A DNA stretch of 64,000 nt from Methanobacteriota archaeon. GTDB lineage: Archaea > Thermoplasmatota > Thermoplasmata > SG8-5 > DAIRED01. The position numbers were made by a program, and so were the translations under genes. The number at the start of each line of letters is the position of its first letter. Positions within the stretch are counted from its first letter, which is position 1. The notes under the pieces are model-generated. The model was not told the DNA's origin, made no database searches, and was given only the letters and a program-made list of their open reading frames with translations. Location: assembly GCA_043799545.1 (NCBI GenBank), contig JAZDNO010000019.1:32001-96000 (forward strand), written 5' to 3'. This document shows, in pieces, positions 4,565 to 61,277 of the stretch.

Positions 4565-6439
4565 ATGCCAAATCGAAACGTCATCCCGATAAAGGACGCC
4601 CCGCCGGGCGATTTTAAAAACCTCGGCGTGCCAGCGTCCAGGCTCGCCGCGCTTGCGCAGGCCGGGCTCGCAATCCCCGAAGGCTTCGTCGTCTCTCAGG
4701 AGATGCTCAACACGGTGCTGGACGCCGACACGGTGGCGAAGCTTCGCGACCTGGGGCTTCGCGCCGGAAAGGCGGACGAGGCGGAGGGCGCGGCGCTGTG
4801 CCGCGAGGCGGGCAAGATCCTCGGCGAGGCAGGCATGCCGTGGGAGACGGAGATGGAGCTCGCGAAGGCGCTGGAGGCGATGCCCCAGGGAGCTTGGCTG
4901 GCGCCCAGCCAGGAGGATGGCGGCATCCCAGTGTTCGCACCAGTGCGCACGAAGAACGCGCTGATAGAGCGGGTGCGGGAGATATGGGCCACGGTCCTCG
5001 ACGCGGATTCGCCGGAGACCTGGCACGAGCCGTTTTCACCCGTCGTCGCAATGGCGGCGCAGGACTTCGAGGTCTCCGGAATCGCGGAGCTGGCAACCGA
5101 GGGGCGCGCCTTCATCGACATCGAGGCTGTCTTCGGTCTGCCCCAGGCCATGTCCGACAGGAAAATCGCCAGGGACAAGTACCGCTGGTCCGTCGCGGAA
5201 TCGCGCCAGCTCAGGGCGGATGTCGCCAAGCAGAGATGGCAGTATTCCATCGCCGACAAGGGCGTTTCCAGGGTGGACGTTTCCCCCGCGCTGGGAGGGG
5301 AGCGCAAGCTTTCGGAGGACGCCCTCGCGGGGCTGGCGAGCGCCGTCCAGGGCGCGGCAGACGCCCTCGACGGCGCCCCCGCGGTGGTCTGGGCCATCGC
5401 GGACGACGAGGTGAAAATCCTGTGGGTTCTGGACCTCAAGCCTTACGAGCGCAGGCCGAAGAAAGCCGAGGTGAAACCCGCAGCCGCCCCCGTCCAGGCG
5501 GTCCAGGACGCCCTCCCGGTCACTGCCACCAAGCTGATGGTCTCAGCCGAGGTCGGCTCGGAGCCTCCTGCAGGCGCAGAGGTTCAGGGCGCGTTCCCGA
5601 TATCGATAGACTCATTCCTCAAGGCGAACCTGCTCGCGCATCCACAATCGCCCGAGGGGGCAAGCTTAGAATCCTTCAAAGCCGGCCTCCCGACGGCGCT
5701 GGAGTCGTACGCCAAGGCGATGCGGCCGCGCCAGGTCGTCGTATCGCTTTCCAACCTTTCGAGCGAGGAGTTCGCAGCGCTTCCAGGCGGGGGGAGGTTC
5801 GAGCCCGCGGAGCGCAATCCGCTCATGGGGTTCCGGGGAAGCGCGAGGCACCTTTCGGTCGGGAACGACAAGCTGCTGGATGCCGAGCTATCGGCAATCG
5901 CGGCGGCGCGACAGCGCGGCGCCCGCAACCTTTCCCTCGCCCTGCCGTTCGTGCGCACGACAGACGAGCTTCTGGCTCTTGCGGCAAGGGCGCGCTCCCT
6001 CGGGCTGGAGCGCGGGCAGGACTTCAAGCTCTGGATGTTCGTCGAGGTTCCGTCCAACGTCTTCATGGCAGAGGATTTCGCCAACTTGTGCGACGGGCTC
6101 GCGATTCGGCTGGAGCCGCTTTACCAGCTGCTGGCGGCGGTGGACCCGGGCTCGGCATACCTCGCCGACGCGGGCTTCGCCAGGCCATCCGACGAGGGGG
6201 CGAGGCGGGCCGTGGCGGAGGTCATCTGCAGGGCGCGCTCGGCCGGAAAGCCGGTCGTTATATGCGGCGAGAAGCTGCACGAAGCGCGGGAGGTTCTCGA
6301 AACGGCAATCAGGGAAGGCGTGGACGCTGTCTCGGCGCCGCCGCAGCACCTGACGCAGCTGGCCAGGGCCGTTGCGGGAATAGAGCAGCGCATATTGCTC
6401 GAGGGCGCGGCGAGGCTGAGGTCGGGAGGAAAGGCTTGA
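4565..6439 (+). CDS. Degenerate PEP synthase-like protein (N-terminal ATP-grasp plus C-terminal PEP-binding barrel, no phospho-His domain)
   Basis: PpsA-like segments IPEGFVV, IEAVFGL, PVTATKL, ERNPLMGFRG, FVEVPSN and VICGE are present. The TSHAAI motif is absent and the protein is 624 aa. Confidence 0.75.
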   Translation: MPNRNVIPIKDAPPGDFKNLGVPASRLAALAQAGLAIPEGFVVSQEMLNTVLDADTVAKLRDLGLRAGKADEAEGAALCREAGKILGEAGMPWETEMELAKALEAMPQGAWLAPSQEDGGIPVFAPVRTKNALIERVREIWATVLDADSPETWHEPFSPVVAMAAQDFEVSGIAELATEGRAFIDIEAVFGLPQAMSDRKIARDKYRWSVAESRQLRADVAKQRWQYSIADKGVSRVDVSPALGGERKLSEDALAGLASAVQGAADALDGAPAVVWAIADDEVKILWVLDLKPYERRPKKAEVKPAAAPVQAVQDALPVTATKLMVSAEVGSEPPAGAEVQGAFPISIDSFLKANLLAHPQSPEGASLESFKAGLPTALESYAKAMRPRQVVVSLSNLSSEEFAALPGGGRFEPAERNPLMGFRGSARHLSVGNDKLLDAELSAIAAARQRGARNLSLALPFVRTTDELLALAARARSLGLERGQDFKLWMFVEVPSNVFMAEDFANLCDGLAIRLEPLYQLLAAVDPGSAYLADAGFARPSDEGARRAVAEVICRARSAGKPVVICGEKLHEAREVLETAIREGVDAVSAPPQHLTQLARAVAGIEQRILLEGAARLRSGGKA

Positions 6440-7602
6440 GCCGGGCGTCGTCGGGATTCCCCCGGAAGGGCTCCGGGAGGAAGGCGGTGCGGGCTAACCT
6501 CGGCGACGCGCTCGAGGAGGATTTTTCCTTTGGCGGCGGGCGCGTGCTGGGCTCGATGTGCACCGCCCCGCTCCCGATTGCCGTCGAGGCGCATTCGAAA
6601 TTTATCGAGTCGAACCTGGGCAACTCGGGGCTGTATCCGGGAACTGCGAAGCTTGAGCGGCAGGTCGTCGCCTGGGTATCGGACCTGATGCACGGCCGGA
6701 ACCTCGCAGGGCACGTCGTCGGCGGCGGGACTGAGGCCAATATCACAGCGCTCTGGGTCGCCCGCAACGCGACCGGAAAGAAGGAGGTGGTGTTTCCCGA
6801 GAGCGCCCACTTCTCGTTCAGCAAGGCGTGCGACCTACTGGGCATGAAGCCAGTCATCGCCAGGCTCAACGACGACTTCACCGTGGACGTGGACGACGCG
6901 CGCCGAAAGATTGGCAAGAACACCGCTGCCGTCGTGGGCATCGCGGGCACGACTGAGGTGGGAGCGGTCGACGACGTGGCGGCGCTGGCCGAGGCGTCCG
7001 AGGGGAAGACGCTCCACGTCGACGCGGCCTTCGGAGGTTTCGTCATCCCGTTCCTGTGCAAGCTCGGAGGCGAGTTTCCGGGCTTCGATTTCTCGGTGCC
7101 AGGCGTGAGCTCCCTCACTATAGACCCACATAAGATGGGGATGGCCACGGTGCCCTCGGGCATCCTGCTGTTCCGCGGGCGGGACAGGCTGGACGGCATA
7201 GCGGTGGACGCGCCGTACCTCACGCTCACTAAGCAGACCGCGCTTTCGGGCACGAGGTGCAGCGCGGCAGTGGCATCGTCGTACGCGGCCATCCGGACCC
7301 TGGGGTTCGAAGGCTACGTCAGGCTGGTCAAGGGCTGCATGGACAACACTGCGCACCTGGCGAAGCGCGCCGGGCAGGAAGGCCTCTCGCTCGCGCTCAA
7401 GCCGCGGATGAACATAGTCAACCTCTCGGTCGATTCCCCGGAGCGCCTGCAGGCCGAACTGGACAGGATGGGATGGAAGGTCTCGAAGGCCTGCAAACCG
7501 AAATCCCTCCGCATGGTTGTGATGCCGCACGTCACTCGGCGGGTGGTTGACTCTTTCGTCCCCGACCTGGCCAAGGCCGCCCGGAGGCTGGGGGAGATAT
7601 GA
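6436..7602 (+). CDS. mfnA: PLP-dependent tyrosine/aspartate decarboxylase
   Basis: RVLGSMCT, NLGNSGLYPGT, GGTEAN, HVDAAFGG and DPHKMG. The TTG start overlaps the upstream TGA. Confidence 0.92.
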   Translation: MSRASSGFPRKGSGRKAVRANLGDALEEDFSFGGGRVLGSMCTAPLPIAVEAHSKFIESNLGNSGLYPGTAKLERQVVAWVSDLMHGRNLAGHVVGGGTEANITALWVARNATGKKEVVFPESAHFSFSKACDLLGMKPVIARLNDDFTVDVDDARRKIGKNTAAVVGIAGTTEVGAVDDVAALAEASEGKTLHVDAAFGGFVIPFLCKLGGEFPGFDFSVPGVSSLTIDPHKMGMATVPSGILLFRGRDRLDGIAVDAPYLTLTKQTALSGTRCSAAVASSYAAIRTLGFEGYVRLVKGCMDNTAHLAKRAGQEGLSLALKPRMNIVNLSVDSPERLQAELDRMGWKVSKACKPKSLRMVVMPHVTRRVVDSFVPDLAKAARRLGEI

Positions 7603-8594
7603 AGGTCGGCGACTTGGATGTTGACATCGGCTGCGCGGTCAAGGAAGCGCTGAAACGCAAGGCCAAGAGCATTGTCCTGCAGGTGCCGGAGGGCCTGAAG
7701 AGGCGCGCTGGCGAGATGGCCGACGCCTTCGAGAGGAAGGGCATTTCAGTTATTCTGGCCGGAGATCCGTGCTACGGAGCCTGCGACCTGTGCGCGGGAC
7801 ACGGCAGGGACATACTGGTCCATGTCGGGCACACCCCGCTCGGGCTTCCCGGAGACGACGAAGTCATATTCGTGGAAGCCATTTCGTCCGCGCCGGTGGA
7901 GGCGGTCGTCTGCAAGGCGCTTCCCCTGCTAGGTTCAAAGGCCGGTCTGGTCACGACCGCGCAGCACGCCCACATGCTGGACGCCGCGACCGCGCTCGTC
8001 CGAAAGTCCGGAAGGAAGGCTCTCAGAGGAACGGGCGATGGCAGAGTCAAATATCCCGGGCAGGTCTTAGGGTGCAACGCCAGCGCCGCCCGCTCCGTCG
8101 CAAAACGCGTCGATTCATTCCTATTCATCGGCACAGGCGTGTTCCATCCGATTGCGGTGTCCCTCGCGACCCGCAAGCCGACAATCGCCGCGGACCCGCT
8201 CTCCGGCGAAGTGCAGGACGTCGGCCCGCTGGCGGAGCGGATTCTCAGGCGCAGGCACGGGCTCATCGCCGTAGCTTCGAAGGCGCATGAATTCGGAATT
8301 ATCGTATGCACCAAGCGCGGGCAGCGCCGGAAATCGACGGCGCTCGCCCTGGCGCGGAAGATAAAAAAATCCGGGCGCTCCGCCCGCATCGTGGCTGCGA
8401 ACGAGATAGAGCCGTGGCGCTTCAAAGGGTTCGGTTTCGACGCGCTCGTTTCGACCGCATGCCCGCGGCTGGCCATAGACGATTGCGCCAGGTTCGACGT
8501 GCCGCTACTCACTCCCGTCGAGGCGGAGATTGCCATCGGCGGCAAGGCTTGGGGGGATTACCAGTTCGACGAGATAGCCCCTTCGCTCGGTTAG
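7599..8594 (+). CDS. dph2: Diphthamide biosynthesis enzyme Dph2
   Basis: LQVPEGLK, CYGACD, HVGH, GQVLGCN and TACPRL, giving the three Fe-S cysteines. Confidence 0.95.
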   Translation: MKVGDLDVDIGCAVKEALKRKAKSIVLQVPEGLKRRAGEMADAFERKGISVILAGDPCYGACDLCAGHGRDILVHVGHTPLGLPGDDEVIFVEAISSAPVEAVVCKALPLLGSKAGLVTTAQHAHMLDAATALVRKSGRKALRGTGDGRVKYPGQVLGCNASAARSVAKRVDSFLFIGTGVFHPIAVSLATRKPTIAADPLSGEVQDVGPLAERILRRRHGLIAVASKAHEFGIIVCTKRGQRRKSTALALARKIKKSGRSARIVAANEIEPWRFKGFGFDALVSTACPRLAIDDCARFDVPLLTPVEAEIAIGGKAWGDYQFDEIAPSLG

Positions 8595-57172: not shown

Positions 57173-58396
57173 ATGGAAATTGAATTCCTCGGTGGCGCCA
57201 GCAAGGTCGGCAGCCTCGGCATGCTGATGAAGACCGGCGGCACGAAGCTCCTCATAGACTACGGCATAACGCCCACCGACCCGCCAGGGTATCCGGTGCG
57301 CACGACCGCTGTGGACGCGGTCCTGCTCACGCACGCCCACGTCGACCATTCGGGTATGATCCCCTGGTACGCGGGGAAATACGACAGCCCGATTCACGCC
57401 TCCCCTCCGACGATAGACGTTGGCCTGATGCTTATGGAAGACACAATCAAGGTCACCCAGGCGGAAGGATATCCCCTGCCGTACGAGCGTGGCGACGTCC
57501 GCGCGGCCCAGCGCAACTTCGACGAGACGGATGTGGGGGAAACGTTCCATGTCGGCGACGTAGAAATCGAGACATTTTCCGCCGGCCACATCCCTGGGGC
57601 GATGATGTACATGGTCAAGTCCCACGACTCAGTTTTGTTCACGGGGGACATCAACACCATCGACACGCGCCTGGTCGGGCGCTGCGACATGCCCCAGTGC
57701 GACACGCTGATACTGGAGAGCACCTACGCCGGCCGGCACCACCCCGACCGTCTGAAGACGGAATACGCTTTCCAGCGCAAGGTGGACGAGGTAGTCGCCA
57801 GGGGCGGAGTCGCCGTCGTTCCAGCGTTCGCCGTCGGGCGCACGCAGGAGGCTGCGATGGTGCTCGCGCAGAGCAGGCACCTCATCTGGCTCGACGGGAT
57901 GGGCAAGCGCGTTAACGAGGCCTACCTCGACCACCCGAAGTACCTGGCATCAGCGAAGAAGCTTCGCAGGGCCATGAACGTGTGCCAGGCTGTAAGGAAC
58001 ACCGGGGCGCGAAGCCAGGCAGCGCATGGGGACGTGATAATCACGACCAGCGGCATGCTGGACGGCGGGCCGGCGCTTAGCTACATAGACAAGCTGAGGC
58101 ACGACCCGAAGAACGCAATCCTTCTCACTGGCTATCAGGTCGAAGGGACCAACGGCCGAAGGCTCATGGACACGGGCAAGATGGTCTTCGACGGCGAAGA
58201 GAAGGAAATCAACTGCGAGGTCTCTTTCTTCGACTTCTCGGCCCATGCGGACCACAAGCAGCTCCTGCGCTTCGTGGACAAGTGCGAGCCCACGAAGGTT
58301 GTATTGATGCACGGGGACCAGCGCGAGGCGCTGGCAAAGGACTTGGAAGGGTACAACGTGGAGATGCCGAACGAGGGAGAGAAGATAGAAATCTGA
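57173..58396 (+). CDS. MBL-fold beta-CASP ribonuclease
   Basis: LTHAHVDHSG, AGHIPG, FTGD, ESTY, FAVGRTQE, SGML and FSAHAD. Confidence 0.92.
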   Translation: MEIEFLGGASKVGSLGMLMKTGGTKLLIDYGITPTDPPGYPVRTTAVDAVLLTHAHVDHSGMIPWYAGKYDSPIHASPPTIDVGLMLMEDTIKVTQAEGYPLPYERGDVRAAQRNFDETDVGETFHVGDVEIETFSAGHIPGAMMYMVKSHDSVLFTGDINTIDTRLVGRCDMPQCDTLILESTYAGRHHPDRLKTEYAFQRKVDEVVARGGVAVVPAFAVGRTQEAAMVLAQSRHLIWLDGMGKRVNEAYLDHPKYLASAKKLRRAMNVCQAVRNTGARSQAAHGDVIITTSGMLDGGPALSYIDKLRHDPKNAILLTGYQVEGTNGRRLMDTGKMVFDGEEKEINCEVSFFDFSAHADHKQLLRFVDKCEPTKVVLMHGDQREALAKDLEGYNVEMPNEGEKIEI

Positions 58397-58397
58397 A
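58388..58397 (+). repeat. Left copy of 10-bp direct repeat GAAATCTGAA
   Basis: Spans the last codons and stop of the beta-CASP gene. It is identical to 61268-61277. Confidence 0.7.
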
Positions 58398-58473
58398 CGC
58401 TACCGATAGTTTCCCATTTCGGTAAATTATAAGTATTGAACGGCCAATTGCCATCAGGGATTTCGATTGAAAT

Positions 58474-59391
58474 GTGGACGAGAGAAGTCCGGTTGTTCAA
58501 AAGGAGCCTGGTATCGTGTTTGATTGGCTCATCAACATCCCCGGGCCGACATTCCTGGTGTACCTCCTCATTTTTATAATATCCTTAACTGTGGTAGGCG
58601 GTTATTTATGTTACTTTGACCCAACTGGCAAATTGGACGAGCCTGGGATTACTGAGCTTGAAAAATACCATATAGCGGCATTGCGCGGAGGAGTCAAGGA
58701 AGTAATTGTCACGGCTGCATTCAGTCTCTGGCATAAGGGGCTTATCAATCTGGACAAAGATGAAATCGAACGTAACGAAAAAAATGTTCCCATACTAGAT
58801 CCCATCGAAAAAGAGGTATATGATGAGCTCTCAACCCCGAAAACAGCGTCCTCATTGGTGTACAGCATCGGCTTAGGAGTTAGGTTGGAAGAATACATGG
58901 AATCCATCAACAAGAACCTGGAAAGGCTGCATTTAAAACCTGGTAAAAGTGCTGCATCTAGAGACTGGCTGATACTCTTTTCTATTCTCACGCCAATCCT
59001 CGTCATCGGTGGATTAAAGTTGTATTTTGGGATTGTGCGAGAGAAACCTGTCATGTTTTTAATAATTCTTCTGTGCATGTCCGCCATACTCATCGTGGTT
59101 TTGTTAAATCCATTGAAGTTCCAAACAACACTGGGAAGGCGTTATCTGAATTCGTTGAAAGATCACTACAATTGCATCAAAGATCGCGCTCCAACGGATA
59201 TTCTCAGATACAATATGGACCCGGCTATCGGAATGGCAGTATTCGGCGTGACTGGGCTATATCTTGTAGCGTCTTTGAACACATTCACAAGCAAGTTCAC
59301 GCCGCAGACGTCAAGCGGGGGATTCGGCTGCGGGGGCGCTGGTTGTGGCGGCGGTGGATGCGGCGGAGGTTGCGGGGGGTGCGGCGGATGA
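58474..59391 (+). CDS. TIGR04222-like membrane protein with C-terminal Gly/Cys tail
   Basis: NIPGPTFLVYL, LEKYHIAALRGG, a TM hairpin, TTLGRRYL, and the tail GGFGCGGAGCGGGGCGGGCGGCGG. Confidence 0.85.
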   Translation: MDERSPVVQKEPGIVFDWLINIPGPTFLVYLLIFIISLTVVGGYLCYFDPTGKLDEPGITELEKYHIAALRGGVKEVIVTAAFSLWHKGLINLDKDEIERNEKNVPILDPIEKEVYDELSTPKTASSLVYSIGLGVRLEEYMESINKNLERLHLKPGKSAASRDWLILFSILTPILVIGGLKLYFGIVREKPVMFLIILLCMSAILIVVLLNPLKFQTTLGRRYLNSLKDHYNCIKDRAPTDILRYNMDPAIGMAVFGVTGLYLVASLNTFTSKFTPQTSSGGFGCGGAGCGGGGCGGGCGGCGG

Positions 59392-60503
59392 AGAAAAACC
59401 GAACTGGTTGCAATAATCCGCGCGAGTCACCGTTGATATTCCAATGGCATATCACCGACAAGTGCAACCTCAATTGCCGTCATTGCTACCAAGATAATGG
59501 GCCTGTGCCAGATCCGGAATTCCCGATGTTGGAGAGGACATTCAGACAATATCTGGATTTGCTGGATAAAATCAAAGAAACGGGACGCTGGAAGCCGCGG
59601 GGGCACATCAACATAACCGGTGGAGAACCATTGCTCCGAGATGATTTGTTCAAGCTATTGAACTTGATATCGGAAGCCGACCGACGTGTATCCGTAGGGA
59701 TACTCACGAATGGAACACTGGTCGACGATAAAATGGCTAAAAATATCGGCGACACGGGCGTCAAATTCGTCCAGGTTAGCATGGAAGGGGGGCGGAAAAC
59801 CCACGATTGCGTCAGGGGGCAAGGCAATTTCAATCTCGTAATCGAGGGAATAGAACGCCTGCAAGGTGCCGGTATTTCAACCTACGTTTCGTTCACCGCC
59901 CACCGTCTGAATTACATGGAATTTGGTGACGTAGCGGGGACATGTCGTAAATTGGGCGTGGATTGTCTTTGGGCCGACCGTCTTATACCTTGCGGACGGG
60001 GCAGGGAATTGGCGAACAGCACTCTTTCGCCTGCACAGACGAGGACATTTTTCCAGAACATGAAGCGCGCAAGGTACAATTTGTCGCGTGGATGGGGCAA
60101 GAAAAAAACCGAGATACGTATGAAGCGCTCCCTTCAATTCCTCATCGGCGGTGGAATGCCGTACCGATGCTCCGCAGGAGACCGCCTGATAACTGTGATG
60201 CCTGATGGAACGATGTATCCATGCCGGAGGATGCCCATTTCCGTCGGAAATGTAGCCGTTGAGTCCATATCAGACACATACTACAACAATGAATTCATGC
60301 AGGCGTTGCGCGATCCGGCCAGGGTGCCGGACGGTTGTGAGAATTGCCTTCACGCGAGCGCATGCCACGGAGGCTCCAGATGTCTGGCTAACGTCGTAAA
60401 CGGTTCGCCGTTTACAAGGGACCCGGGATGCTGGGATGCTCATTTTAACAGCTTGGAAAGTCCTGTCTTTGATGTTGGGGACGTGAGGTGTGAAGTATGG
60501 TAG
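59388..60503 (+). CDS. Radical SAM/SPASM domain protein
   Basis: FQWHITDKCNLNCRHCYQ, TGGEP, VQVSMEG, and SPASM cysteines CSAG...YPC...CENC...CHGGSRC...DPGC. It has an ATGA overlap with the upstream stop. Confidence 0.95.
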   Translation: MKKNRTGCNNPRESPLIFQWHITDKCNLNCRHCYQDNGPVPDPEFPMLERTFRQYLDLLDKIKETGRWKPRGHINITGGEPLLRDDLFKLLNLISEADRRVSVGILTNGTLVDDKMAKNIGDTGVKFVQVSMEGGRKTHDCVRGQGNFNLVIEGIERLQGAGISTYVSFTAHRLNYMEFGDVAGTCRKLGVDCLWADRLIPCGRGRELANSTLSPAQTRTFFQNMKRARYNLSRGWGKKKTEIRMKRSLQFLIGGGMPYRCSAGDRLITVMPDGTMYPCRRMPISVGNVAVESISDTYYNNEFMQALRDPARVPDGCENCLHASACHGGSRCLANVVNGSPFTRDPGCWDAHFNSLESPVFDVGDVRCEVW

Positions 60504-61237
60504 ACAATTTGCCGTTATCGAGCACGAATGTGGGACCGGAAAGCGTAAGAGCACTGGAACACTTTGTAGCAGATGTGTTGAAGGAGTTCCAAACTGACAT
60601 ATCATCCATCATTTTGTACGGCAGCGGTGCGCGTGCTGATTTCAGGGAGGGGAAAAGTGACCTCAACCTCCTTGTCGTATTTTCTAGTCTGGACATGGCG
60701 CGAATGAGCCGGTTCATACCTCTGCATGACAAATATCTTCGAAATCGAATTGTACCACTGGCATTGACGAAGAAGGATCTCGTTGACACGGCCCATGTGT
60801 TTCCACTCAAGTTTCTATCGTTTAAAGAGGCAAATGTCGTCCTATCTGGCATCGATGTGTTGAAAGAGATAGATGTGGACAATTCGCATGTCAGGTTTAG
60901 GTGCAAGCAGGAACTTCAAAACCTGTTGATGAGGTTGAGATACCACTACATATCCAACCAAGGGCGGGGGCTGACGAACATGATGTCTCGCACATCGACA
61001 AATTTCATCGAATCCCTTCGTGTCGTGATATTGTTGGAAACGGGCAACAAACCCGACAGAGTCGGGATAGTCGAGGCTGCCAGTTCAATCGGTATCGATG
61101 GAGGGGCTTTGAAGAAAGTGCTCGACATTAAGGGAAGGGATGTTGCCTTGCCAAACACAGAGTCCAGAGTGATTTTCGAGAGATATCTCCGAATTGTGGA
61201 GCAATTGTTAGCAAAGGTGGACAACCTTAAAGAATGA
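60497..61237 (+). CDS. Pol-beta-superfamily nucleotidyltransferase with helical C-terminal domain
   Basis: IILYGSGAR...SDLNLLVV. It overlaps the rSAM stop and has a GAGGTG RBS. Confidence 0.8.
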   Translation: MVDNLPLSSTNVGPESVRALEHFVADVLKEFQTDISSIILYGSGARADFREGKSDLNLLVVFSSLDMARMSRFIPLHDKYLRNRIVPLALTKKDLVDTAHVFPLKFLSFKEANVVLSGIDVLKEIDVDNSHVRFRCKQELQNLLMRLRYHYISNQGRGLTNMMSRTSTNFIESLRVVILLETGNKPDRVGIVEAASSIGIDGGALKKVLDIKGRDVALPNTESRVIFERYLRIVEQLLAKVDNLKE

Positions 61238-61267
61238 ATATAGCAAGAATATTTTTGTAAATAAATT

Positions 61268-61277
61268 GAAATCTGAA
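61268..61277 (+). repeat. Right copy of 10-bp direct repeat GAAATCTGAA
   Basis: Identical to 58388-58397, located at the right edge of the AT-rich cassette. Confidence 0.7.

Follow-up and report, generated by a model that had tools for sequence, protein, structure and literature searches.

What does a radical SAM enzyme act on when its gene overlaps that of a membrane protein ending in a short run of cysteines and glycines? The question is raised by three overlapping genes, A, B and C, in a Methanobacteriota archaeon (assembly GCA_043799545.1; Thermoplasmatota, Thermoplasmata, SG8-5, DAIRED01). They lie within a stretch of 64,000 nucleotides of contig JAZDNO010000019.1 (positions 32,001 to 96,000 of the forward strand), which we refer to as the window and number from its first letter. 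Gene A codes for a TIGR04222-domain membrane protein with a Cys/Gly tail, gene B for a radical SAM/SPASM enzyme and gene C for a protein with a predicted nucleotidyltransferase fold. Our comparisons suggest that B probably modifies the tail of A, in which case the cassette would be a protein-maturation module. The evidence lies in the recurrent adjacency of B-type enzymes and tailed membrane proteins, and in the conservation of the tail itself.

58474..59391, + strand: gene A, TIGR04222-domain membrane protein, 305 amino acids from GTG 58474
59317..59388, + strand: Cys/Gly tail of A, residues 282-305, GGFGCGGAGCGGGGCGGGCGGCGG; proposed substrate segment
59388..60503, + strand: gene B, radical SAM/SPASM enzyme, 371 amino acids, no N-terminal RiPP recognition element (RRE) domain (RiPP, a peptide made on the ribosome and modified after translation)
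59463..59486, + strand: CxxxCxxC radical SAM cluster motif of B (C26, C30, C33), invariant in alignment A1
60168..60431, + strand: SPASM auxiliary-cluster region of B, C261 to C348, with seven invariant Cys
60497..61237, + strand: gene C, predicted two-domain nucleotidyltransferase-fold protein resembling aminoglycoside and kanamycin nucleotidyltransferases (ANT/KNTase-like), 246 amino acids
60620..60667, + strand: nucleotidyltransferase motif region of C, G42-S43 ... S54-D55-L-N57

Genes A and B share ATGA at 59388-59391, and genes B and C share the 7 nt ATGGTAG at 60497-60503. Both overlaps are exactly where a preliminary description of the locus had placed them, and the three genes are translationally coupled.

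The cysteine/glycine tail and its radical SAM partner

Gene A matched the TIGR04222 profile at 98.4 bits (cut-off 43, E 4.6e-28, model positions 28-228 of 229), with a weak additional match to DUF2207_C, and is the sole TIGR04222 gene of the genome. Its likelier start is GTG 58516, 14 codons past the first GTG at 58474, since most homologues and the 79%-identical relative at locus L020 begin there and a GGAG sequence stands 10 nt upstream (58503-58506). The tail holds five cysteines, each followed by GG as described earlier, and residues 282-305 are composed of G and C plus one F and one A. In the AlphaFold2 (AF2) model of A, with a predicted local distance difference test score (pLDDT) of 85.6, long helices span residues 24-47, 158-188 and 194-211. 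The third is followed by a soluble helix, short helices at 250-264 and 266-275 and the disordered tail, with pLDDT <50 at residues 280-299. A Foldseek search with this model against the Protein Data Bank (PDB) gave no significant match, the best row being MotA at E 0.41.

Conservation of the carrier is concentrated in this tail. When 24 TIGR04222-type carriers (mean identity 31%) were aligned, no columns were invariant except C291 and G299-C-G-G-C-G304, all of which lie in the tail, so that the Cys tail singled out in the preliminary description is indeed conserved. The underlying DNA uses mixed Gly and Cys codons, gives weak tandem-repeat scores and is no pure DNA microsatellite, which points to selection on the peptide rather than slippage. 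Gene A was also the only open reading frame (ORF) with a Cys/Gly tail among 16,829 six-frame segments of its genome.

Both domains of B scored above their profile cut-offs, namely PF04055 (Radical_SAM; 83.9 bits, cut-off 29.5, residues 22-179) and PF13186 (SPASM; 32.7 bits, cut-off 21.5, residues 261-320), and the family assignments first given to A and B thus held. The three cysteines of the CxxxCxxC motif were invariant in 30 sequences, as were seven C-terminal cysteines in the B family (261, 279, 317, 320, 326, 332 and 348), with the SPASM cysteines spaced Cx2Cx5Cx5C rather than in the usual Cx2Cx5Cx3C. No Pfam match to a PqqD-like RRE was found in the N-terminal region, and there is no room for one because the radical SAM domain begins at residue 22 and the CxxxCxxC motif at residue 26. 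None of the 79 matching NCBIfam models reached its cut-off, the best scores being those of TIGR04053 (152.6 bits, cut-off 395) and TIGR04340 rSAM_ACGX (147.9 bits, cut-off 400). The latter belongs to the ACGX-type models that the preliminary description had suggested checking; it matches B end to end but below cut-off. The SbtM model TIGR04082 gave 136.2 bits (cut-off 350) over model positions 201-498 of 516. The nearest solved structures by sequence are SkfB (91.9 bits), CteB (76.5), PqqE and the anaerobic sulfatase-maturing enzyme anSME (70), all of them peptide- or protein-modifying SPASM enzymes. Other radical SAM/SPASM paralogues with 26-28% identity to B are present in the genome (two in tandem at G000:C18:35415-37503, and G000:C2:144842-145816) and are unrelated to the tail system.

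We sought to establish how regularly enzymes like B accompany tailed membrane proteins. About 1000 relatives at 40-50% identity were present in a large protein collection, and when one genome per species was scanned, at least 598 stretches matched, 585 of them encoding B relatives. The radical SAM form was found in Syntrophobacter, Desulfobacterales, Nitrospirota, rumen Ruminococcus and archaea, and the pairing recurs in species that number in the hundreds and are mostly anaerobic. In the first three long contigs examined, a TIGR04222 protein with a Cys/Gly tail lay directly upstream of the enzyme in all three. A single-sequence tblastn with A was too insensitive for the carriers, and we therefore surveyed the best 80 of the at least 598 species loci with an iterated hidden Markov model and a composition screen of ORF ends. 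At 58 of these 80 loci, an ORF next to the enzyme gene had a Cys/Gly/Ser tail at its end.

In a quick IQ-TREE analysis of the enzymes that included two outgroup sequences, all tail-linked enzymes fell within one clade of 70 rows (Shimodaira-Hasegawa-like approximate likelihood ratio test, SH-aLRT, 99). A tail gene adjoins 56 of the 70, and two further rows are truncated by a contig end. Outside the clade, nine rows (outgroup aside) had no adjacent tail carrier and look like paralogues. Among in-clade orphan enzymes, each of the five genomes tested held exactly one unlinked TIGR04222 gene, in every case with a Cys/Gly tail. Homologues of the enzyme are thus found mostly beside a Cys/Gly-tailed membrane protein, as had been anticipated. 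Neither the 40 relatives of this archaeon that were examined nor 14 control genomes contained TIGR04222 itself, and no other pathway genes were conserved around the A-B pair in the contexts examined.

The carriers adjoining the clade are of several types: TIGR04222 proteins (in many phyla), full-length DUF2207 proteins (540-700 amino acids), TPM-domain proteins (270-330 amino acids, mostly from Bacillota of the rumen) and small proteins with three transmembrane (TM) segments. They end in Cys-rich G/S tails such as CGGCGG(D/G/N), CGGGGAD, CGGGGSW or GSGGSSSF. Because carrier architectures differ while the Cys-bearing tail persists, the tail is the shared feature, and on these sequence comparisons it is the tail, not TIGR04222 as such, that is the constant partner of the enzyme. 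The original proposal that the radical SAM enzyme modifies the tail of a membrane protein is therefore well supported by comparative genomics, with the defining partner shifted from the TIGR04222 domain to the tail. Carrier and tail type also cluster on the enzyme tree (19 changes versus a shuffled mean of 43), a result that is suggestive because related genomes share labels.

Individual loci depart from the simple pair in various ways. A betaproteobacterial locus (L050) has tandem TIGR04222 paralogues (5015-5953 and 6053-6931, both on the - strand and both Cys/Gly-tailed), a gene C homologue (6928-7659, - strand) and one radical SAM gene, which would mean several substrates per single enzyme. 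In two Nitrospirota genomes (L037 5065-6628 and 6931-7989; L038 983-2600), the in-clade radical SAM gene lacks an adjacent tail carrier and is followed by conserved genes of ~330-347 and ~200 amino acids; in L037 another radical SAM gene follows as well. At L024 (10-741, 808-1965, 2138-2743), a second radical SAM/SPASM gene lies 3 kb upstream of a bacterial TIGR04222-radical SAM pair. Its best match is TIGR04133 (226 bits, cut-off 425). Before it comes a 243-amino-acid protein that matches no family and after it a tetratricopeptide repeat (TPR) protein, and the group may be another maturase-substrate set. At L023 (2493-3941), a sulfatase gene stands directly upstream of a bacterial TIGR04222-radical SAM pair whose enzyme is distantly related to anSME; this adjacency is probably coincidental.

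Tail orientation, candidate chemistry and competing readings

On which side of the membrane would such a tail lie? In TPM-type carriers, a signal peptide that looks cleavable is followed by a TPM domain of ~140 amino acids, a single TM segment and a K/R-rich stretch before the tail, and with one TM segment followed by K/R their tail would therefore be cytoplasmic. For TIGR04222-type carriers, the loop after TM3 has, family-wide, 7.8 K+R and a net charge of +3.4, and the N-terminus a net charge of -0.75. The segment preceding the tail is of marginal hydrophobicity (0.9-1.96), and in several members it contains Asp or Glu. These sequence features and the models favour, as the best fit, a three-TM topology with a cytoplasmic tail. 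The cytoplasmic orientation first suggested from positive-inside residues is thus plausible, given the charge of the loop after TM3 and the TPM-type carriers, and it would suit a cytoplasmic radical SAM enzyme.

Similar tails have been linked to another class of enzyme. Many TIGR04222 genes, mostly in Actinomycetota, adjoin genes for multinuclear non-heme iron-dependent oxidases (MNIO, DUF692), and their Cys-rich tails have been proposed as MNIO substrates (PMC12452194, Microb Genom 2025). Radical SAM partners of TIGR04222 are not mentioned in that paper, and we found no description of a radical SAM enzyme paired with a tailed carrier in the literature searched or in curated NCBIfam models. 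The two systems have in common the carrier family, the Cys/Gly(/Ser) C-terminal tails, a whole membrane protein as proposed substrate and the presence of gene C homologues. They differ in the enzyme, which here is a radical SAM/SPASM protein, and in the tail, predicted to be cytoplasmic here and periplasmic there; in both cases modification is a proposal. At one locus (L110), a C homologue is followed by a TIGR04222 protein ending CGGGCGGCGG, an ending identical to that found here, and then by a BufB-like MNIO (198 bits). Radical SAM enzyme and MNIO therefore hold the same slot beside the same tail, which suggests an oxygen-independent/oxygen-dependent enzyme pair. A search for MNIO (PF05114) in the genome of our archaeon, which is 94% complete, gave no match, and the control Caulobacter vibrioides was detected.

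What chemistry might the tail undergo? The MNIO BufB turns Cys into 5-thiooxazole in copper-binding bufferins, a heterocycle that, according to the same article (PMC11626156), had one earlier occurrence, as the product of a radical SAM enzyme. The thio(seleno)oxazole radical SAM family bears the name SbtM in NCBIfam (TIGR04082). As reported (Lewis et al. 2021, cited in PMC11626156 and PMC12668002), SbtM resembles B in being a radical SAM/SPASM enzyme acting on Cys of a ribosomal product, and it would be a precedent for a radical SAM enzyme and an MNIO making the same Cys-derived heterocycle. It differs in that B lacks the N-terminal ~200 residues of SbtM, and in that the substrate described there is a free peptide and here would be a membrane protein tail.

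Other known maturases share parts of this arrangement. TIGR04340 rSAM_ACGX enzymes, like B, are RRE-less radical SAM/SPASM proteins of similar length, matched by B end to end, and their substrates contain short Cys-Gly-containing repeats; B falls far below the family cut-off, however, and the substrate there is a small repeat peptide rather than the tail of a membrane protein. Sactipeptide and ranthipeptide maturases (SkfB 6EFN, CteB 5WGG, PapB) have the same SPASM architecture and make Cys thioether cross-links, but they have an RRE or leader-binding domain at the N-terminus and work on short peptides that contain a leader, whereas B begins with the radical SAM core. The structures of anSME (PDB 4K36-4K39) show an RRE-less SPASM enzyme of ~370 amino acids, as is B. 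This enzyme oxidises a Cys of a full-length protein and is the oxygen-independent counterpart of an oxygen-dependent enzyme. Its similarity to B is distant: anSME models are not among the best 25 of the 79 NCBIfam matches of B, and its target motif, C/S-x-P-x-R, is absent from the tail of A, which contains only G, C, F and A. With the formylglycine-generating enzyme (FGE), anSME makes up an oxygen-independent/oxygen-dependent pair of the kind suggested here.

If the tail is the substrate, conversion of Cys to 5-thiooxazole is, by analogy, a possibility that we hold tentatively as the leading guess, since it is formed both by BufB, an MNIO, and by SbtM, a radical SAM enzyme. A sactionine-type thioether from Cys-S to Gly-C-alpha comes second, as a more doubtful analogy drawn from SkfB and CteB, which among solved structures lie closest to B in sequence; some other chemistry is about equally conceivable. 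In the mechanism we propose, a horizontally acquired maturation module would provide A, a membrane protein whose C-terminus, a short disordered Cys/Gly tail, would lie on the cytoplasmic side, and B, which would recognise this tail directly, without an RRE, and use radical chemistry to alter its cysteines. What results would be a modified peptide appendage tethered to the membrane, with metal binding as the leading guess for its role. B would be the oxygen-independent counterpart of the MNIO (DUF692) enzymes found beside like tails in aerobes, and C an ANT-like accessory accompanying Gly-rich-tail carriers whatever the enzyme.

Several points weigh against this interpretation. About one fifth of clade members have no adjacent tail gene, and the co-occurrence counts are drawn from related genomes, hence are non-independent. 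B has neither an RRE nor a detectable docking domain, which leaves recognition of a low-complexity tail unexplained. Segment 250-268 of A is hydrophobic (Kyte-Doolittle 1.74) and, as a fourth TM segment, would turn the tail to the outside, and a periplasmic tail has been predicted for MNIO-linked TIGR04222 proteins (PMC12452194). The models for AhbD (130 bits, cut-off 500) and NirJ (124 bits) score B as high as those for peptide maturases do. Throughout, that the tail is modified at all is something we infer from sequence. A prediction of the complex of B, S-adenosylmethionine, three 4Fe-4S clusters and residues 262-305 of A (score 0.03, mark 0.32) speaks neither for nor against binding.

The AhbD and NirJ scores are compatible with B being an AhbD/NirJ-like small-molecule or cofactor enzyme, with A a scaffold, transporter or sensor of the same pathway and its tail an ordinary low-complexity sequence. 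The TIGR04053 score (153 bits) likewise rivals those of peptide maturases, the absence of an RRE fits, and Cys-free Gly-rich tails are common in TPM and DUF2207 proteins (L108, L126). We nevertheless consider this unlikely. All of these NCBIfam scores lie far under their family cut-offs, and the neighbours of the clade bear Cys-containing tails specifically, across unrelated carrier architectures. Moreover, GCGGCG holds the carrier's only block of invariant columns apart from C291, and no further pathway genes are conserved around the pair.

Gene linkage alone is silent on which partner acts on which, and the roles might be reversed: the unmodified tail, Cys-rich and flexible, would bind iron, an Fe-S cluster or another metal and serve B, which needs three 4Fe-4S clusters, through cluster delivery, membrane recruitment or a redox relay. 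That all five orphan genomes keep an unlinked carrier fits either direction. Yet the same tails pair with MNIO enzymes (PMC12452194), which use no Fe-S clusters, and the nearest solved relatives of B by sequence need no such helpers. These two points make the reversed arrangement quite improbable, and modification of the tail by B remains the reading we prefer.

The proposed accessory nucleotidyltransferase-fold gene

Where does gene C fit? By sequence its assignment is weak, with 17.4 bits against the Polbeta profile (cut-off 26.9), and NTP_transf_2 matched 33 of 78 C-family members at E<=0.01. The AF2 model (pLDDT 96.5) gave clear Foldseek matches to ANT(9), AadA and ANT(4') (E 2.7e-7 to 4e-5, probability 1.0), the best of them to ANT(9) 6SXJ (E 2.7e-7, probability 1.0, TM-score 0.55). 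As modelled, C has an ANT-like two-domain nucleotidyltransferase fold. The nucleotidyltransferase label of the preliminary description therefore stands for the fold, with the sequence score short of the profile cut-off. Like these enzymes, C combines an N-terminal Pol-beta nucleotidyltransferase domain with a C-terminal helical domain in ~250 amino acids. It differs from them in its identity of 11-15%, in its motif D55-x-N57, where Asn replaces the second metal-binding carboxylate of canonical enzymes, and in its context of tail carriers rather than resistance. Conservation in the 78 sequences was high at G42 (78/78), S54 (70/78), D55 (61/78), N57 (72/78) and D120 (72/78). Of the canonical catalytic pattern, hG[GS] ... 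[DE]-h-[DE] with a third carboxylate, C has G42-S43 and D120.

The C family is large (2069 representatives at E<=1e-3), and a Gly-rich-tail membrane protein adjoined the C homologue in 19 of the 22 contexts with informative flanks. Of these 19, 12 also have a radical SAM enzyme (the window, L020, L029, L034, L035, L045, L049-L052, L057 and L117). An MNIO is present at L110 and possibly at L118, and in five contexts the carrier stands without either enzyme: its tail contains Cys at L106, L122 and L125, whereas at L108 and L126 a TPM-like protein has a Gly tail free of Cys. In the other direction, a full-length gene C match was found in 13 of 50 radical SAM-bearing genomes searched, with one more weak partial match in Ruminococcus. 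C thus tracks the tail carrier, not the modifying enzyme, because carriers accompany it with a radical SAM enzyme, an MNIO or neither. Judged by this distribution, C may bind or further modify the tail or its carrier, and its association with the carrier rather than the enzyme points to a further step in tail handling. At L118, the 168-amino-acid protein downstream of the C homologue (1323-1829) ends CGGGCGGCGGD, and the next ORF, of 55 amino acids (1829-1996), resembles an MNIO N-terminus by eye; it may be a broken or mis-assembled MNIO gene.

Insertion site, origin and significance

How did such a cassette come to lie in this archaeal genome? Its GC content (58397-61273) is 0.481 versus 0.598 for the whole window, the lowest of all 2877-bp windows in the 64 kb (mean 0.597, standard deviation 0.035). 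At third codon positions, GC is 0.51-0.58 in genes A, B and C, whereas the flanking beta-CASP RNase, L15e and PaaK-like genes have 0.82-0.85. The G+C counts of 20, 23 and 44 made by hand earlier for the 60-nt lines at 58561, 59521 and 57781 were exact. Homology of a congener (G001) to the window stops at 58396 and restarts at 61274. The congener's slot between the beta-CASP RNase and L15e genes is occupied, in place of the cassette, by genes for an AAA_14 ATPase and a TIR-domain protein (GC 0.39). The cassette is also flanked by a 10-bp direct repeat.

58388..58397, + strand: left copy of the 10-bp direct repeat GAAATCTGAA, overlapping the stop codon of the beta-CASP RNase gene
61268..61277, + strand: right copy of GAAATCTGAA, between the gene C stop and the 3' end of the convergent L15e gene
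L116 (G001:C239) 377-1630, + strand, and 1687-2340, - strand: slot cargo of the congener, an AAA_14 ATPase gene and a TIR-domain gene

The repeat occurs exactly twice in the window, where 0.07 copies would be expected by chance, and was considered as a target-site duplication. It is absent at the matching places of L020 and G001, and its meaning is uncertain because of this lack of conservation; it could be a remnant of the insertion event or chance. The initial description of the cassette as inserted is supported by its composition, the lack of TIGR04222 in the 40 relatives and the different cargo of the congener. To judge from these contents, the slot resembles a hotspot whose cargo varies and may be related to defence.

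Such a location raises the question of whether the cassette is itself an anti-phage defence module, combining a radical SAM enzyme, a nucleotidyltransferase and a membrane effector. Consistent with this are the AAA_14 and TIR-domain genes in the same slot of G001, weak PADLOC matches of B to pVip and of C to the PDC-S09 and PDC-M05A nucleotidyltransferase models, and a distant fold match of C to Hailong HalB. Nonetheless, what pVip matches in B is the generic radical SAM core (residues 19-145) and no more, and SPASM domains are lacking in viperins. The PDC-S09 and PDC-M05A matches cover the nucleotidyltransferase motif of C, and A had no PADLOC match. Furthermore, the pair with its Cys tail is conserved across many phyla in ordinary chromosomal contexts, and C also accompanies tail carriers with an MNIO or with no enzyme. 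A defence role is thus highly improbable, and we return to the maturation module in considering where it came from.

The closest instance, in JGI metagenome contigs, has a B 78% identical and 79% DNA identity over the whole region, and is placed likewise between beta-CASP RNase and L15e genes. In the enzyme tree, B falls among bacterial TIGR04222-linked enzymes and one archaeal metagenome-assembled genome (L029), which also carries A and C homologues. The preliminary description knew of no archaeal example; L029 is another one. The low GC, the tree placement and the variable slot together indicate horizontal acquisition of the cassette into a variable locus with bacteria as the source, a direction that is inferred rather than fixed by a root.

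What would this mean beyond one archaeon? Proteins of the TIGR04222, DUF2207 and TPM kinds that bear "uncomplex" Gly-rich tails abound, without a known function. A dedicated, translationally coupled radical SAM enzyme offers a direct experimental handle on these tailed proteins. In a broader picture, which we consider speculative and rather doubtful, Cys/Gly tails would be a widespread undescribed class of rewritten appendage, a run of thiooxazoles or a ladder of thioethers on the cytoplasmic face. They would be made by two enzyme classes that are not related to each other, the oxygen regime deciding between them: radical SAM/SPASM enzymes in anaerobes and archaea and MNIO enzymes in aerobes, with a shared ANT-like accessory recognising the Gly-rich tail, and would serve as a membrane-tethered metal-binding or redox module, not as a secreted natural product. 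Should B indeed act on the tail, its relatives, in at least 585 species genomes, would form a large family of RRE-independent SPASM enzymes acting on whole membrane proteins. With its MNIO counterpart, B would then join sulfatase maturation as the second instance in which paired aerobic and anaerobic enzymes have converged on one protein cysteine, and such systems would be extended to archaea via inter-domain transfer.

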